A stretch of DNA of 22,398 bases from a virus. Its lineage: Duplodnaviria; Heunggongvirae; Uroviricota; Caudoviricetes. The notes beneath the pieces were generated by a model, which had not been told where the DNA came from, did not search any database, and saw nothing but the letters and a program-made list of their open reading frames with translations. The DNA lies in the IMG/VR virus record IMGVR_UViG_2563366887_000003. One strand, written 5' to 3'. The translations under genes and the position numbers were made by a program. This document shows positions 2,793 through 16,903 of this stretch, in pieces (positions within the stretch are counted from its first letter, which is position 1; each line of letters begins with the position of its first letter).

Positions 2793-5385
2793 TTGCATAT
2801 TCCTTAGCCCAGCGGGGCAGTGATAACGTCTTAATAGCTGGCCATTCATCGGTATTGAGGCAGTCAGCCAGGGTTCGCAGATTGCGGTGATATTCCAGCT
2901 GACCTGCCAGTTTTGCTTCTTCGCCCATCATGAAAATTTCAACCGGATAACGTCCGCATTCAATAGTTGTGCTGGCAACCAGAAAAACGAAAGTTGGCTG
3001 CACTCCAAACTGTGCTTCATAACCGTCACTGTAGAATGCATCCTGAACGTGATAGCGGTAGTCGTAATAAGCGGTTTTGAATCGTTGAATATCCGCCGTA
3101 GTTTTCACGTCCATGATCCAGTGAAATTCAGGGATAATTTTGTCCGGACGGCACCGACACAAAATTGCTGTTTCAGGATCTTCCCAGTAAATTGATGATT
3201 CAGCGTGTCCGGCGCTTTCAACAAGCCATTGCCCCAGCGGCAAAGCCATAACGCTCTGATACATGAGTTCAATTTTCCGGCCTTCTTCGGCAGTGATAAC
3301 CGTTTTTCCTGTGCTTGCGCATTCCCTCAGAAACGCTTTCTCTTCTTCTTTTCCGGAGTTTGTCCGGCGGTTAAATTCAGGTGCTACGATAAAGCGGTTA
3401 CTGAATTCTTCCGGCTCAAGTACCCGGCAGTGGAAAGCGGTTCCTAAATCGAGCGTTTTTGTCTTTGTGGTGTCCACGGGGGCATTTTTACGCCACAAAT
3501 ACAGTGCCGGAGTATCAGCAATGTCATCGAGCTGAGACTTACTGACACCGGGACCCGCGTGGTAATTCTCATTCGAAATTCCGTAATAAATACCTGGCTC
3601 TATGTCTTCTACGATTACGGGATCTGCGACTTCGCCAGTTTCATCACTGCAATCGCGATGCGGATCGCTGCCAGCATTCTCATTGTGCGGATGTTCAGCG
3701 CCTTCCATTTCCTCCGGATCATTTTCCTTAGCTTCAACCTGACTCTCTTCATCGAATGTTTCCTGGTATGTTGCGTCGCCCATCACCGCACCACAGTCAG
3801 GGCAGTTATCCCCGCCAGTCTGGCCGCAGGCATTGCAGGCTATTTCCGGTTCCTGTTGCACTACTGGCTCAGGTTGATTCATATCCGGGCTGGTTTTTTC
3901 CGTTTCTGGCTGGTTCTGGTACACACAATCGCGAGTCTGGATCCCCTTTACCCATTTCGGATCGTTCGGGTCGCTAATTCCGTCAACAAATTCACCACGT
4001 GATGCAGCAAGCAATTTATCGGCATCGACAGGATTTTTTGATGGAATGTTTTTCCGGGCTTCATGGAGTTCTGCCCGCAGTTCCTGATATTTCGCATCAA
4101 CAGAATTTACCTGTGACTGAGCATCCAGCGGCTGCGTGTCCTGATGATGTTCAGTTGCGTCCGGTTCCATTGTTTCAGCCTCTCCCTGTTCAACTGCCGT
4201 TGTTCCAGATGGTTGCGGTTTTTCTTCATCATCCTGTTTTCCTTCTTCTGTTACTCGCTGCGGCATCGGGGCAGAGGAGCGACCGCAGGCAATATCCACG
4301 ATTTCCGGATCAGGGTTGGCATGATCGGTTTCAGTCAGTACTTTGTTCAGATATTCAGTGACGTGCGCGGGGATGACCTCGATCCCAATTGGTGCTTCTT
4401 TTACGGACGCAACCACGATGGCGCGGGAATAATCCAGCCCGCCAGGCATGGTGATGAATTTGTCGCGGAAAACAGAAAAGGGCGGTTTATTTTCAGCGAT
4501 AATTTCCTCAATGCGTTTAGCGTGTGCCGGATGAAGGTTATAGATGTCCAGATCCATTGAACGGGCCAGTACGCCAGTGGCTACGTCCCGCGCCAGTGAC
4601 GTCAGATCGTGTACGAAACCTTCGCCGCGATCGGTGAGGTTTCCGCCGCCAGCATTAGCACCGGAAGCCGTGCGAGTGATGTGTGAAACACGATTACCCT
4701 TCATCCACTCTTTTGTCAGCAGTCCTCGATCGGTGTAGTCAGCGTTCAGGTATGCTTCGAAAAAAGCAGTTATCAGTCCCAGGTTTGAATTACCAGGATT
4801 AGGGAAAACTTTGTCAGTGTCACGAACCAGTTTGTGGAGTTCGCGAATTTCCAGCGGGTCGAGCAGGCTGGTTTTGTGGGAAACAGCCAGGGCAGTAACA
4901 GCCGGTAGTTCTTCAGCCCGAGCAATGTGTAATGCCTGGAGTCCGTCGCGTGAAACGTGCGTTACCGGTTTTTCGCTGCCGTGTTGAGCAAGCCAACGAA
5001 TGGGCAGTTCCTGGCCAGAAATTGGGAGTAGCATATTCTCCTCAATCTCAGTCATGTCTTCGCCGTTGACGTTGGTATTGCCTTGATAGTGAGCGTTGTC
5101 TGGTGCTGCTCCCGGTTTTAGTTCCCATGTCATGGAGTCTTTGCTGAGTTGATAGCGTTCACTCCAGGTAAAATCGATCTCACCTTCAGCGGGCAGGTCA
5201 TTAACGACAGGAAAATTCGTGGCAACAGCTTTAAAATAGCTGCTCAGTTTTTTACCTGACTTAACGATCAGGTAGTCCAGAGTGGCACAGGTCGATTCAA
5301 AATCGTTGCTTGCCCACAGGACGACGTCAGGTTCACCGGATGATTTTTTCGCTTTCCGTAACAGGAAGAGTGGTTTTGTGCTCAT
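2785..5385 (-). CDS. recE: Exodeoxyribonuclease VIII RecE (866 aa), intact
   Basis: Uninterrupted 866-aa minus-strand ORF, the same length as K-12 RecE; recognisable acidic central region and C-terminal nuclease region. Its stop overlaps the recT start by 8 nt. Confidence 0.9.
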
Positions 5386-12630: not shown

Positions 12631-12920
12631 TGGTGAATTTACGTAAAGCGGCTAAAGGCCAGATGTGCCAGATCAGAATCCCTGGCTACTGCAATCACAA
12701 TCCCGAAACCTCTGTGCTGGCGCATTACAGGCTGGCGGGGACGTGCGGAACAGCGACAAAACCACATGATATGCAGGCGGCGATAGCCTGTAGCTCATGC
12801 CACGATCTAATCGACGGGCGGGTAAAAACCAGCGATTACACCAAAGAAGAATTGCGCCTGATGCATGCTGAAGGGGTTTTTCGCACACAAGAAATCTGGA
12901 GAAAGAAAGGTCATTTATGA
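12630..12920 (+). CDS. YbcO-like DUF1364 protein (96 aa, Cys/His-rich putative nuclease)
   Basis: MVNLRKAAKGQMCQIRIPGYCNHNPETSVLAHYRLAG..CSSCHDLIDGR contains a Cys/His cluster. Same length and position (just before Q) as DLP12 YbcO. Confidence 0.7.
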   Translation: MVNLRKAAKGQMCQIRIPGYCNHNPETSVLAHYRLAGTCGTATKPHDMQAAIACSSCHDLIDGRVKTSDYTKEELRLMHAEGVFRTQEIWRKKGHL

Positions 12921-13459
12921 TTTACCCAACGAATACAGGAAAAAGCGGAGAACACCTTCGCCTCACCACGCTGGAAAGTGTCTGGATTCAGGGAAAACTA
13001 CGTATGTGGGGGCGCTGGTCGTATATTGGCGGTGGCAGGTCAGGGAATATGTTCAATCAGTTGTTGGCATACAAAAAACTGACGAAAACAGCCATTAATG
13101 AAGCCCTGCGCAGAATGAAAAAAGCGGGAATAGAGAAAGCTGAGCTGGAAGCGTTTTTGCGAGAGATGATCAACGGCAAGCAAAAGAGCTGGCTGGCGCA
13201 TTGTACTGATGCAGAGGCGTTATGTATTGATCGAGTCATAAGTGAGGTGCTGGCAGAGCATCCAGGATTGATTTGCATTCTCCGGCAACGCTATGAAGGG
13301 CGGGGGATGACTAAGCGCAAAATGGCTGAATTGCTAAATGATGCACACCCAGAGTGGTGTTTTAGCACATGCGAAAAACGGATTGCTAATTGGTTAGCTG
13401 TTGCTGAGTATGCCCTATATATTCCCATGCGTGAATCATTTGCTGAGAAAATGGCTTGA
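12917..13459 (+). CDS. Late-gene antiterminator Q-like protein (180 aa)
   Basis: ATGA start/stop overlap with the preceding gene. Last gene before terminators and the lysis cassette, which is the canonical Q position. Family called from position and general resemblance only. Confidence 0.55.
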   Translation: MIYPTNTGKSGEHLRLTTLESVWIQGKLRMWGRWSYIGGGRSGNMFNQLLAYKKLTKTAINEALRRMKKAGIEKAELEAFLREMINGKQKSWLAHCTDAEALCIDRVISEVLAEHPGLICILRQRYEGRGMTKRKMAELLNDAHPEWCFSTCEKRIANWLAVAEYALYIPMRESFAEKMA

Positions 13460-13540
13460 TTTCTTACGTATAAACTGCTTCAATTTTGCTATGCTTCGCA
13501 AAGCTGTATCGCGAGGCGGATTGCAGACATGGACATCGTA

Positions 13541-13566
13541 AAAAAACCGCTTAATGCGGTTTTTTT
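13541..13566. terminator. Bidirectional rho-independent terminator after the Q-like gene
   Basis: aaaaaaccgc-ttaat-gcggttttttt: a short GC stem flanked by an A6 run and a T7 run. Confidence 0.6.
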
Positions 13567-13886
13567 ACGTCAGGAAAGCAGGGGAGAATGCTGCTAGTTG
13601 GGCAACTGGTCTTTCTGCTCCAAATTATAACAGAGACCAGTTATAGTTTCGGTGCTGTGTTTTTTTTACAATATTGTGATAACACATTGCTGGCGGGAGT
13701 TTTGATATTTCTTGGCAGGGGCTGATGATGCGTTATCCTGATGTCGTCAACTCATATAAAATGAGATGAGAGATCATTGCAGGGTGGTTTGTAATTCGCT
13801 GTTTAGCGGGACAATATGTTGTCTGATACAAGACACCCGACGCCTCAGATTACTATAATAAAGACGAAGCATCCTTTGTATTGACC

Positions 13887-13912
13887 AACCGCCTGTTTAG
13901 GCGGTTCTTTTT
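13887..13912 (+). terminator. Rho-independent terminator (tR'-like candidate)
   Basis: aaccgcc-tgttta-ggcggtt followed by cttttt. Confidence 0.55.
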
Positions 13913-14444
13913 GGGCTGGTTTATTGTATGCCAAATGATTATTAAAAAGGTTGTGTTAATAACAAAATCCGAAATAATATGCCTGCATATTTTTATCTTG
14001 CTTATATTCTGCATATTGTGCATAGCAGGCTCATCCCTGCAATCAAAACTGTATGATGAGTATTTTTTGTTTTCCTTTTTTCCAGTCATCTGATGATGAC
14101 CTGCTTCTTTTTAATCCGGATCGACATCAGTTTTTTAAGATAATTCCTGCGAGTTATATGCATAAATGCCACAAACTCCGCATTTTATGTGGTTGGGAGT
14201 TGCCGGGCGCGCAGTGAGTTTGCTAAGAAAACTCCTGCATGGTGAATCCCCCTGTGCGGTGGGGTGATACCATTAACCTTTTCTGTCGCCGACAGGTATC
14301 ACGAACATTTTGTTCACCGGGAGGCACCCGGCACCATGCACTTCAATAGATTCTCTCCACATTATGGATATTCTTTCAGAATATCCCACGCAGACTTTGT
14401 GTAAATGTTAACAAATGTGCGTTTTATTTGATCTGATTCGCTGT

Positions 14445-14474
14445 TTGAGCGTCCAAAACAACGGTATATATAAT
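14445..14474 (+). promoter_or_regulatory. Candidate sigma70 promoter for the first TolA-like lipoprotein gene
   Basis: TTGAGC (14445-14450), 18-nt spacer, TATAAT (14469-14474), about 30 nt upstream of the start codon. Confidence 0.4.
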
Positions 14475-14503
14475 CCTTTACTATATGACATATGTGAGGA
14501 AAA

Positions 14504-14932
14504 ATGGGTTTTCGTAGCGCATCAATTCTTACGTTGATTATTAGTGGGATTATTATCGGGTGCACTGATGCTGTATCGACAAATTATCATGACCGTACAT
14601 CATATTACTCCGATAAAGCAATAGAGACACAGTATGTGAGTTCATCTGAACGTACTTCTGATGTTAGTGAGGATATCCGTCTGTATGCCCATCAAATCAA
14701 GAGCGCCATCGAAAAACAGTTCGGGGATGCGAGTAAGTATTCAGGAAAAGAGTGTACACTGAGAATGCATATGGCCCCGAATGGCCTTCTACTGGAGGTT
14801 AAAAGAGAAAGTGGAGACCTCGATTTATGTCGTGAAGCGATGAATGCGATAAAGAATGCTGATATACCTGCCCCCCCTTCGCCGGAAGTATATAAAGTAT
14901 TTCAAAATGGGGTGCTGGATTTTAAACCCTGA
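14504..14932 (+). CDS. Lipoprotein with a C-terminal TolA-domain-III-like domain (142 aa)
   Basis: Signal peptide with lipobox IIGC (MGFRSASILTLIISGIIIGC). C-terminal 85 aa, YAHQIKSAIEKQFGDASKYSGKECTLRMHMAPNGLLLEVKRESGDLDLCREAMNAIKNADIPAPPSPEVYKVFQNGVLDFKP, closely parallels the TolA C-terminus as I recall it (YAGQIKSAIESKFYDASSYAGKTCTLRIKLAPDGMLLDIKPEGGDPALCQAALAAAKLAKIPKPPSQAVYEVFKNAPLDFKP). Confidence 0.8.
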   Translation: MGFRSASILTLIISGIIIGCTDAVSTNYHDRTSYYSDKAIETQYVSSSERTSDVSEDIRLYAHQIKSAIEKQFGDASKYSGKECTLRMHMAPNGLLLEVKRESGDLDLCREAMNAIKNADIPAPPSPEVYKVFQNGVLDFKP

Positions 14933-15082
14933 TATTTATTGTTTTGTAATAAACGGTTTCGGCTTAGGTTTGTTCTGACACAGCTACGGCACTGAGCTAA
15001 ATTTAGCGGATAGTCAGCTCTGAGCCAGTGGCGGACGTAACAACTACTATTGCTGAGATTTTAATGGATTGAGGAGCAAGAA

Positions 15083-15478
15083 GTGGGATTAAAGAAAATC
15101 GTTATGTTGACTTTTTGGGTCGGTTTTGTTGCGGGATGCACACCTTTACACCCTTCAGATTGCCACAAAACTACTGCTACAGGTAGTTGCAGTTCAGGAC
15201 GCTGGGATGATCAGGATGAATGGGGGGCGCAAGCGCGGGGAATCAGAGCTGCAATTAATGCCAAACTTGATGAGCCGCATAACTGGAAAGGGAAAAAATG
15301 CAGGTTGCATATGGAATTCTCTCAGGATGGCACGGCGTTAAAAATATCTACCAGTAACGGTGATAAAGCCTATTGCGAAGCGATAAAGTCCGCAGCTCAT
15401 AAAGCCAAATTTCCGGCCTTCAACAATCCGGAAGTCTACAGAGATTTTCAGAAATCTGGCTTTGACATGCGAGGTTAG
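15083..15478 (+). CDS. Second, more divergent TolA-domain-III-like lipoprotein (131 aa)
   Basis: GTG start at 15083 with GAGGAG 6 nt upstream. Lipobox VAGC (MGLKKIVMLTFWVGFVAGC). C-terminus KKCRLHMEFSQDGTALKISTSNGDKAYCEAIKSAAHKAKFPAFNNPEVYRDFQKSGFDMRG keeps the two Cys residues and the PEVY motif of the first copy. Confidence 0.7.
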   Translation: MGLKKIVMLTFWVGFVAGCTPLHPSDCHKTTATGSCSSGRWDDQDEWGAQARGIRAAINAKLDEPHNWKGKKCRLHMEFSQDGTALKISTSNGDKAYCEAIKSAAHKAKFPAFNNPEVYRDFQKSGFDMRG

Positions 15479-15729
15479 CTCTTCAATTACTATATCTCAT
15501 TCATAGCAAACTGACAGATTTGATGATGTTCTATATACGAAACCTGTGATGTCAAGTCTGAGCTAATACAAATAAACATAATATCAGAGAAATACATTTT
15601 ATTAGCTCGCTACGGCGAGCTTTTTATATTGCATCGTCTCCAGCATATATATCAATTAAGGCTCTGATTGATGTGTCTGAAAGCCTACACATAATAACTA
15701 TGCCATCCGTTCCGTGCGGAGGTGAGGCT

Positions 15730-15945
15730 ATGAAATCCATGGACAAAATTTCAACAGGCATTGCCTACGGCACCTCCGCAGGCAGTGCTGGCTACTGGTT
15801 TTTACAGTTGCTCGATAGAGTAACTCCGTCACAGTGGGCTGCAATCGGTGTGCTGGGTAGTCTGGTATTTGGCCTGCTGACGTACCTGACAAACCTTTAT
15901 TTCAAGATTAAAGAAGATAAGCGCAAGGCTGCGAGAGGTGAATAA
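15730..15945 (+). CDS. Phage 21-type pinholin (S21-like, 71 aa) with dual-start motif
   Basis: [71 protein letters not shown]. Two in-frame ATGs (15730 and 15739; M-K-S-M) as in S21 antiholin/holin. GGAGGTGAGG Shine-Dalgarno upstream; TAATG overlap with the endolysin. Confidence 0.85.
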
Positions 15946-16442
15946 TGCCTCCATCATTACGAAAAGTCGTTGCTGCTGCTATTGGTGGCGGAGCAATTGC
16001 TATAGCATCAGTGTTAATCACTGGCCCAAGTGGTAACGATGGTCTGGAAGGTGTCAGCTACATACCATACAAAGATATTGTTGGTGTATGGACTGTATGT
16101 CACGGGCATACAGGAAAAGACATCATGCTCGGTAAAACGTATACCAAAGCAGAATGCAAAACACTCTTGAATAAAGACCTTGCCACTGTCGCCAGACAAA
16201 TTAACCCGTACATCAAAGTCGATATACCGGAAACAACGCGCGGCGCTCTTTACTCATTCGTTTACAACGTGGGTGCTGGCAATTTCAGAACATCGACGCT
16301 TCTTCGCAAAATAAACCAGGGCGATATCAAAGGCGCATGTGATCAGCTACGTCGCTGGACATATGCTGGCGGTAAGCAATGGAAAGGTCTCATGACTCGT
16401 CGTGAGATTGAGCGTGAAATCTGTTTGTGGGGTCAGCAATGA
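15945..16442 (+). CDS. SAR endolysin (R21-like lysozyme, 165 aa)
   Basis: N-terminal Gly/Ala-rich weakly hydrophobic signal-anchor-release segment ([20 protein letters not shown]) followed by a lysozyme-like domain; overlaps the holin stop and the Rz start. Confidence 0.85.
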
Positions 16443-16903
16443 ACAGAGTAACCGCGATTATCTCCGCTCTGGTTATCTGCATCATCGTCTGCCTGTCATG
16501 GGCTGTTAATCATTACCGTGATAACGCCATTACCTACAAAGCCCAGCGCGACAAAAATGCCAGAGAACTGAAGCTGGCGAACGCGGCAATTACTGACATG
16601 CAGATGCGTCAGCGTGATGTTGCTGCGCTCGATGCAAAATACACGAAGGAGTTAGCTGATGCGAAAGCTGAAAATGATGCTCTGCGTGATGATGTTGCCG
16701 CTGGTCGTCGTCGGTTGCACATCAAAGCAGTCTGTCAGTCAGTGCGTGAAGCCACCACCGCCTCCGGCGTGGATAATGCAGCCTCCCCCCGACTGGCAGA
16801 CACCGCTGAACGGGATTATTTCACCCTCCGGGAACGACTGGTAATGATGCAGGCCCAACTTGAAGGTGCTCAGCAATACATAACCGAGCAGTGTTTAAAG
16901 TAA
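16439..16903 (+). CDS. Rz-like i-spanin (154 aa)
   Basis: ATG at 16439 overlaps the endolysin stop (ATGA). N-terminal TM segment followed by a coiled-coil-like Ala/Arg/Asp-rich periplasmic domain. The track ORF starts at GTG 16427. Confidence 0.8.
16659..16844 (+). CDS. rzoR: Rz1-like o-spanin lipoprotein (61 aa), embedded in the +1 frame of Rz
   Basis: [24 protein letters not shown]...[15 protein letters not shown]: lipobox VVGC and a proline-rich tail; matches my recollection of Rac RzoR. Confidence 0.8.

Follow-up and report, generated by a model that had tools for sequence, protein, structure and literature searches.

What are two small lipoprotein genes, each ending in a copy of the C-terminal domain of the host protein TolA, doing just ahead of the lysis genes of a prophage? 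The question is raised by a stretch of viral DNA of 22,398 nucleotides (IMG/VR record IMGVR_UViG_2563366887_000003), the whole of which is called here the window, and in which a preliminary description made from the letters alone had pointed to two neighbouring open reading frames, ORF1 and ORF2, as membrane-tethered mimics of TolA domain III (TolAIII). Both are protein-coding genes under purifying selection. Moreover, they are not peculiar to phage, being part of a broad accessory family in the Enterobacterales, and the role that we tentatively favour for them is that of decoys for the ligands of TolAIII. The two genes are:

14504-14932, plus strand: ORF1, ATG start, lipoprotein of 142 residues; signal peptide, tether of about 35 residues (low model confidence) and TolA domain III at residues 55-142
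15083-15478, plus strand: ORF2, GTG start after an AGGAG Shine-Dalgarno sequence, lipoprotein of 131 residues; tether, followed by a diverged copy of TolA domain III (residues ~44-131)

The N-termini of both proteins have the features of lipoprotein signal peptides, with positive charge near the start, a hydrophobic core and a lipobox of the form [LVI][ASTVI][GAS]C. In ORF1, R4 is followed by TLIISGIIIG/C20, with threonine at position +2 and the residues T-D-A after the cysteine, whereas ORF2 carries K4 and K5, then LTFWVGFVAG/C19, again with threonine at +2 and followed by T-P-L. Both match the PROSITE PS51257-type pattern and have a lysine or arginine within the first seven residues, the lipoboxes IIGC and VAGC being present as the preliminary description had read them. 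Beyond the tether, ORF1 scored 82.6 bits (E 2.4e-23) against the Pfam family TolA_C (PF06519, gathering cut-off 25 bits) over profile positions 4-96 of 96. Its residues 55-142 lie without a gap on residues 334-421 of E. coli TolA, up to the final residue (PDB 1s62, 3qdp, 1tol and 9k49; E ~1e-27), with identity at 52 of the 88 positions (59%), which bears out the collinearity with TolA domain III claimed earlier for this C-terminus. In the AlphaFold model, the domain superposes on the solved TolAIII 2x9a_B at 0.6 Å over 88 residues, and solved TolAIII structures came first among the Foldseek matches.

The second protein is clearly more diverged. ORF2 reached 54.6 bits (E 1.3e-14) over positions 10-92 of the same Pfam profile, a gap-free alignment pairs its residues 50-129 with TolA 340-419 (E 5e-9), and 27 of 88 residues are identical to TolA; the AlphaFold domain still fits the solved TolAIII 3qdp at 1.1 Å over 86 residues (Foldseek). 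The per-residue confidence of AlphaFold (pLDDT) was ~90 for the C-terminal domains of both proteins and below 50 for signal peptide and tether. Altogether, the alignment and modelling that the preliminary description had proposed as checks found the similarity to be genuine in both cases. As in E. coli TolA domain III (residues ~325-421; PDB 1TOL, 1S62, 3QDP and 2X9A), both proteins combine this fold, in which helices pack on a sheet of three strands, with a conserved cysteine pair, Cys363/Cys388 in TolA.

The tether of the ORF2 lineage has a character of its own, being near-invariant in sequence (C-x-PLHPS-x-CHKTTATGSC, ORF2 residues 19-36, window 15137-15190) and holding two extra cysteines, C27 and C36 (Cys-x8-Cys), which suggests that a disulfide-stapled loop may sit beside the lipid anchor. 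The motif GRWDDQDEWG of ORF2 was also considered as a possible TolB box (compare DGSGW...W of colicins E9 and A, PMC2821528) and rejected, because W47 aligns with TolA I337 inside helix alpha1, and the stretch is modelled, at a pLDDT of ~85, as belonging to the domain and not as a disordered epitope; the different spacing between the two tryptophans further weakens that assignment.

The evidence for selection comes from Nei-Gojobori estimates of the ratio of non-synonymous to synonymous substitution rates (dN/dS). For ORF1, compared with homologues of 91% and 66% identity, which retain the full frame and the lipobox, the ratio was 0.26 and 0.36 overall and 0.09 and 0.24 within the TolAIII domain, whereas for ORF2, compared with plasmid and chromosomal homologues, it ranged from 0.05 to 0.16. 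The GTG start of ORF2 finds support in homologues whose sequence opens, at the same position, with MGVKKI... None of this is apparent from the current annotation. In RefSeq/PGAP only 14672-14932 of ORF1 is marked, under the label of a partial tolA pseudogene ('missing N-terminus'), and ORF2 is made to begin at an internal ATG (15104-15478), which cuts off the charged beginning of its signal peptide. In this regard, ORF1 exceeds the cut-off of TIGR02794 (75.6 against 59.45), although it does so through its C-terminal domain, the last 97 residues, alone. The RefSeq treatment of the two genes looks like an artefact caused by a full-length TolA model, and pseudogene status was rejected for ORF1 on its dN/dS. 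As a consequence of the mislabelled ORF1 and the truncated signal peptide of ORF2, the family stays hidden from automated surveys, whatever its function.

Where these proteins reside, and to what they are connected, would determine how they could act. Lipoproteins with aspartate at +2 are retained in the inner membrane according to the '+2 rule' of the Lol system, and the others are sorted to the outer membrane. With threonine at this position, ORF1 and ORF2 are therefore predicted at the inner leaflet of the outer membrane. Of the earlier idea of a membrane-tethered TolA copy, the lipoprotein pattern stands for both proteins, and the refinement concerns the membrane, which would be the outer and not the inner one. 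Against PRK09510, a model of full-length TolA with a cut-off of 213, ORF1 and ORF2 scored 107.8 and 53.7, and only positions 293-386 of its 387 were matched. Unlike TolA, the two proteins lack the inner-membrane anchor (domain I) and the long helical domain II, having instead a putative lipid anchor, predicted to lie in the outer membrane. Since domains I and II are absent, both would be uncoupled from TolQ-TolR.

The surfaces through which TolAIII meets its ligands are known from previous work. The N-terminus of TolB, the N1 domain of the filamentous-phage protein g3p and colicin N each add a beta-strand to strand beta3 of TolA (PMC4339652; PMC7391070), and when TolA carries D418P or K420P, all three interactions are lost and a full tol phenotype results (PMC4339652). 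For colicin A the binding site is the opposite edge, L375-P380, with K368, K379 and K396 making cation-pi contacts (PMC3365938). The corresponding positions compare as follows:

Strand beta3, TolA L417-P421 (LDFKP): ORF1 LDFKP, identical; ORF2 FDMRG, with Asp kept, Lys changed to Arg and beta-formers kept
Colicin A edge, TolA L375-P380 (LLDIKP): ORF1 LLEVKR; ORF2 ALKIST
Colicin A lysines, TolA K368, K379 and K396: ORF1 H, K and K (two of three kept); ORF2 E, S and H (none kept)

D418 and K420 correspond to D139 and K141 of ORF1 and to D128 and R130 of ORF2. Across 54 short lipoproteins, the conservation of L417, D418, F419 and K420 was 0.67, 0.72, 0.85 and 0.52, compared with 0.64, 0.34, 0.98 and 0.50 in 50 full-length TolAs; the colicin A edge is variable in both sets. 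The beta3 site is thus retained, and for this reason the decoy idea stays plausible.

How far such proteins extend was followed with a profile of both types, which returned 607 matches from 1.84 billion representative proteins. Among the best 150 of these matches, 96 were no longer than 190 residues, and 62 of those 96 carried a lipobox (by a loose pattern), none of them with aspartate at +2. Members with names came from Serratia, Erwinia and Dryocola. A few short members (P0228, P0264 and P0302) have ordinary cleavable signal peptides and no lipobox, and would be soluble periplasmic TolAIII domains. A third type of lipoprotein, of 144 residues, with the lipobox segment LITA/C, the motif EVDDLLGNL and the ending LDFRL, occurs on about 310 IncF/IncR plasmids of Klebsiella and Enterobacter. 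Its gene lies directly downstream of one for a periplasmic thioredoxin-fold CxxC protein (4812-5246 and 4217-4765, respectively, in L129, a K. pneumoniae IncF plasmid); the same pair is present in L130, and the two genes may form an operon. Both ORF1 and ORF2 match PHROG 5772 ('unknown function') over their full length, with E of 1.6e-62 and 6.7e-65, and RefSeq calls homologues of ORF2 'cell envelope integrity TolA C-terminal domain-containing protein', both labels being sequence groupings to which no function is attached. The domain assignment is therefore already implicit in database names and the sequence family is not new. What appears to be undescribed is the natural combination of outer-membrane lipoprotein and TolAIII, with its breadth, its mobility and its likely role; in this line, a full-text literature search, thin on subscription journals, returned no paper on prophage or plasmid TolAIII lipoproteins or their function.

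ORF1 and ORF2 have quite different distributions. All ORF1-type genes that were found lie in prophages, in the interval from Q to the holin; they come from several lambdoid backgrounds, each time upstream of a holin gene, and they also occur there without ORF2, next to other types of Q and other cargo. ORF2-type genes without ORF1, on the other hand, are present on about 600 plasmids, including IncI1 plasmids, with an example just past the relaxase gene, and pO157-like IncF plasmids, where the gene sits between hok/psiA and toxB. They also occur as single chromosomal genes in Enterobacter, Citrobacter, Klebsiella, Raoultella, Serratia, Leclercia, Lelliottia, Kluyvera, Pantoea, Buttiauxella and Yokenella. 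These chromosomal sites, in about 29 species, are non-syntenic and non-phage, and some adjoin defence genes such as GmrSD/HEPN; vertical inheritance of the ORF2 type was rejected because the flanks are non-syntenic across the 29 species. Nucleotide similarity between the ORF2 of the window and the plasmid and chromosomal copies runs from 30-37 nucleotides before the start codon to the stop codon.

The preliminary description had explained the second gene as an older tandem duplication of the first, an origin that does not hold. Within the domain, ORF1 shares only 25 of 88 residues with ORF2, against the 52 that it shares with TolA, and the closest relatives of ORF2 are other short lipoproteins (P0168 and P0171). 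A neighbour-joining tree of 107 TolAIII domains, only indicative because it rests on just 88 columns, places the two on opposite sides of the midpoint root. Moreover, each type is found alone. As for the pair together, the survey of its frequency that had been suggested found the whole cassette in 773 of 5426 complete E. coli genomes (~14%), conserved at 99-100%. In 80 IMG/VR prophage contigs, about as many have it with the Rac-type Q as in another background, and the collection of sequenced phages holds it in one record only.

In Lelliottia wanjuensis, an ORF2-type gene lies directly upstream of tonB and yciA (L103, 6001-6387 and 6839-7687). That a mimic of the TolA tip adjoins the gene of a paralogous energy transducer is probably a coincidence.

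The reading that we favour, as one with a substantial though less than even claim, is that ORF1 and ORF2 are uncoupled decoys that would capture TolAIII ligands at the outer membrane, conferring tolerance to colicins and excluding filamentous phages. TolAIII domains tethered there would be detached from the TolQ-TolR motor, and because of this missing connection the ligands they bind would be captured without energised import. Candidate ligands, all of which TolAIII itself normally binds by beta-strand addition, would be the translocation domains of colicins of group A (N and A, for instance) and the N1 domain of filamentous-phage g3p, with TolB's N-terminus as a possible further one; nuclease colicins need TolB to reach TolA. 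The decoys would encounter these ligands on their entry into the periplasm, leaving the cell tolerant to the colicin or closed to the phage. A division of labour between the two proteins is conceivable, in which ORF1, with its exact beta3 and two of the three colicin A lysines, and ORF2, with the beta3 character and none of the lysines, would cover different ligands. In the lysogen, expression would start at a promoter of the cassette and end at the terminator at 15604-15629, and after induction Q-modified late transcription would add to it.

The spread of the family is what we would expect from an accessory, defence-like function, with lambdoid backgrounds of at least two kinds that differ in their Q gene, the ~600 and ~310 plasmids and the chromosomal islets. 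Many of the carriers are conjugative plasmids. Filamentous phages that depend on TolA use conjugative pili as their primary receptors, and spread on plasmids whose pili attract such phages fits a decoy. It has been reported by Levengood-Freyermuth, Click and Webster (1993) that cells exporting TolAIII artificially to the periplasm become colicin-tolerant and leaky. The complex of TolAIII with g3p of the phage If1 has been solved (PDB 2x9a), and g3p-N1 produced in the periplasm sequesters TolA and makes cells resistant to colicin A and phage (PMC10424213). Such laboratory constructs, exporting either TolAIII or g3p-N1, follow a like principle, in which an uncoupled periplasmic partner competes with the native TolA interaction. 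They are artificial, soluble and overproduced, whereas ORF1 and ORF2 are natural, predicted to be lipid-anchored, under purifying selection and carried by prophages and plasmids.

The window is a Rac-type lambdoid prophage of E. coli, and its positions 14300-15600 are 100% identical to a RefSeq E. coli chromosome. The gene order in that record is kilR, sieB, ydaE, ydaT and a replisome organiser, then DUF1367, DUF1364 and DUF1133, followed by the two TolA-like genes, essD (holin), rrrD (endolysin), Rz and trkG. The features around the cassette are:

12917-13459, plus strand: Q-like late-gene antiterminator of the DUF1133 type (PHROG 753, 'anti-termination protein Q-like', E 1.1e-78; DUF1133 in RefSeq), upstream of the cassette
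13537-13569, plus strand: A-run/T-run hairpin ~80 nucleotides past the Q stop codon; RNA fold -19.7 kcal/mol; missed by the consensus terminator scan
13887-13915, plus strand: a further hairpin that resembles a terminator and has a T-run, lying between Q and the cassette; 8 pairs in the terminator scan, 5 of them G-C; fold -14.3 kcal/mol
14207-14393, plus strand: STnc100-type prophage small RNA element (Rfam RF02076, 86.6 bits, gathering score 47, E 1.3e-17), directly upstream of ORF1, where the mobile block has its left edge
14445-14474, plus strand: sigma70-like promoter candidate, TTGAGC-18-TATAAT, 10 of 12 consensus matches
15604-15629, plus strand: intrinsic terminator separating ORF2 from the holin gene; 7-bp G+C-rich stem, TACG loop and T-run; fold -13.0 kcal/mol; ~100 nucleotides before the holin ATG
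15730-15945, plus strand: holin gene essD (this and the next two from the RefSeq annotation of the 100% identical region and the list of open reading frames)
15945-16442, plus strand: endolysin gene rrrD
16439-16903, plus strand: Rz, with Rz1 embedded at 16659-16844

The placement of the pair between Q and the holin gene, on the late-gene strand, was correctly read from the start, as the PHROG 753 match and the RefSeq lysis genes confirm. The sigma70-like site proposed ahead of the first gene is there too, as a consensus match only, in a region where 11 sites of this kind were found against 6.7 ± 2.4 expected. The spacer between ORF1 and ORF2 is of 150 nucleotides and holds no terminator. With its predicted promoter and terminator, this two-gene accessory cassette in the Q-to-holin interval would have a classical 'moron' layout; related prophages hold other cargo in the same interval, such as tRNAs, esterases, TerB-like proteins and AraC-like regulators.

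The hairpin at 13537-13569 is probably the late-leader terminator (tR'), and the segment around it is kept together with Q, up to 13518 in L127 and up to 13566 in a prophage of EDL933 whose Q is 76% identical. The pair, the STnc100 element and the holin gene move instead as one block, which is 97% identical in phage mEp460_ev081, with its unrelated Q and endolysin, and which begins at 14216, coinciding with the start of STnc100. A late promoter just upstream of the holin gene, leaving the cassette outside the late operon, was judged unlikely for this reason, as 14216-15946 recurs at 97% identity in a phage whose Q is unrelated, while the Q-linked segment stops at 13518-13566. The Q-to-holin interval repeatedly contains elements of the STnc100 type, with the ORF1-type gene of related prophages lying between such elements; they may be repeated recombination or cassette boundaries, or leaders for the cargo genes. 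The copies elsewhere (RF02076) are:

L127: 4704-4877, 5599-5803 and 5854-6061
L126: 2589-2802
L002: 5891-6081

Several points weigh against decoys. The main weakness is that a decoy trapping the N-terminus of TolB should itself give the lysogen a costly, tol-like leaky envelope. Conservation of beta3 could also be explained by constraints of the fold, because binding proceeds by addition of a strand to the backbone, and the lipoproteins are, in general, conserved in the same pattern as TolA. Moreover, the promoter of the cassette is a consensus match only, the defence models of PADLOC gave no match for either protein, and the restriction of ORF1-type genes to the Q-to-holin interval fits a lysis-linked role equally well. 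Such a role is the main rival, although we consider it rather unlikely. ORF1 and ORF2, expressed for the most part late and in dependence on Q, would bind the TolB N-terminus, cut the TolA-TolB-Pal connection and loosen the outer membrane from the cell wall (tol phenotype, vesiculation) before holin, endolysin and spanin act, making lysis faster or fuller. The position of the cassette speaks for it, between Q and the holin gene on the same strand and downstream of the Q-linked leader and terminator, as does the fixed location of ORF1-type genes upstream of a holin in several lambdoid backgrounds. The block common to phage mEp460_ev081 extends from STnc100 up to and including the holin gene, the strand that binds TolB is conserved, and the D418P and K420P changes of TolA, which break TolA-TolB binding, result in the full tol phenotype (PMC4339652). 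This would leave unaccounted for, however, the ORF2-type genes and other family members that live alone on plasmids and chromosomes with no lysis genes nearby, as well as the promoter-like site of the cassette and the terminator that insulates it from the holin gene; the Q-to-holin interval is, in addition, a general cargo site.

A lower probability still is given to a different kind of lysogenic conversion, in which the proteins would tune Tol-Pal or vesicle output, or bind a ligand of the host or the environment, with a gain in fitness or virulence like that of Bor or Lom and no exclusion of colicins or phages. The moron-like architecture, the strong purifying selection on ORF2 across genera (dN/dS 0.05-0.16) and the presence of an ORF2-type gene on virulence plasmids such as pO157, adjoining toxB, are all compatible with it, and modulated TolB interactions could regulate vesicle production (reviewed in PMC7391070). 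No result obtained here points, however, to a specific ligand or phenotype of this sort, and the best-conserved surface is that of the known TolAIII ligands. Finally, it is hardly credible that the pair is non-functional debris, with ORF1 a fragment of tolA picked up by the phage and ORF2 a decaying copy, as the pseudogene label at 14672-14932 and a TIGR02794 cut-off reached only through the last 97 residues would have it. The reading frame is unbroken and has a start codon, a Shine-Dalgarno sequence and a lipobox of its own; frame and lipobox are kept in homologues of 66-91% identity; the cassette is 99-100% conserved in 773 genomes; and the dN/dS of 0.09-0.24 for the ORF1 domain and 0.05-0.16 for ORF2 contradicts this explanation.

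Returning to decoys, ORF1 and ORF2 would be akin in kind to the exclusion and conversion lipoproteins of mobile elements, working by mimicry of a host protein. Small outer-membrane lipoproteins that block a route of entry through the envelope are encoded by several such elements, as in the case of Cor (phi80/N15), Llp (T5) and TraT (F-like plasmids). Cor and Llp inactivate the receptor FhuA, whereas ORF1 and ORF2 would mimic a host protein, so the likeness is one of type, and no sequence relationship is claimed. If they do act as decoys, about 14% of complete E. coli genomes hold a determinant, unrecognised as such, that makes the cell tolerant to group A colicins and filamentous phages, and the same would apply to some 900 sequenced plasmids, including pO157-like and IncI1 ones. 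This would bear on competition in the gut, on antimicrobials based on colicins or phages that enter through Tol, and on how conjugative plasmids can afford their pili. It would also offer a natural case of host-protein mimicry used for defence rather than attack, and a ready-made tool for uncoupling TolA from TolB in vivo. With more reserve than for the two genes themselves, we can imagine that short TolAIII copies anchored in the outer membrane are widespread, unrecognised mobile immunity genes of the Enterobacterales, on prophages, conjugative plasmids and islets. Through receptor mimicry uncoupled from energy, they would act against Tol-dependent bacteriocins and pilus-specific filamentous phages, with lineages (the ORF1 type, the ORF2 type and the Klebsiella plasmid type) tuned to different invaders, and with conjugative plasmids offsetting the phage sensitivity brought by their own pili.

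A possible lead on expression came from the CP-933O prophage of EDL933, in which a gene linked to 'TolA' (EDL933_2012) was induced 32-fold by ciprofloxacin (PMC11125564). A homologue was sought in two regions of EDL933 (1.835-1.930 Mb) and not found there, so that the lead is unconfirmed.

Some features of the prophage lie outside the cassette. The antitoxin small RNA RalA, of the RalR/RalA toxin-antitoxin pair, is encoded at 1557-1735 of the window (Rfam RF02694, 225 bits), as expected in a Rac prophage. The Q, holin and endolysin genes are intact here, whereas the Rac prophage of K-12 is without them, and the potassium transporter gene trkG (17041-18498, 38% G+C) directly follows the lysis genes, like in the Rac of K-12.

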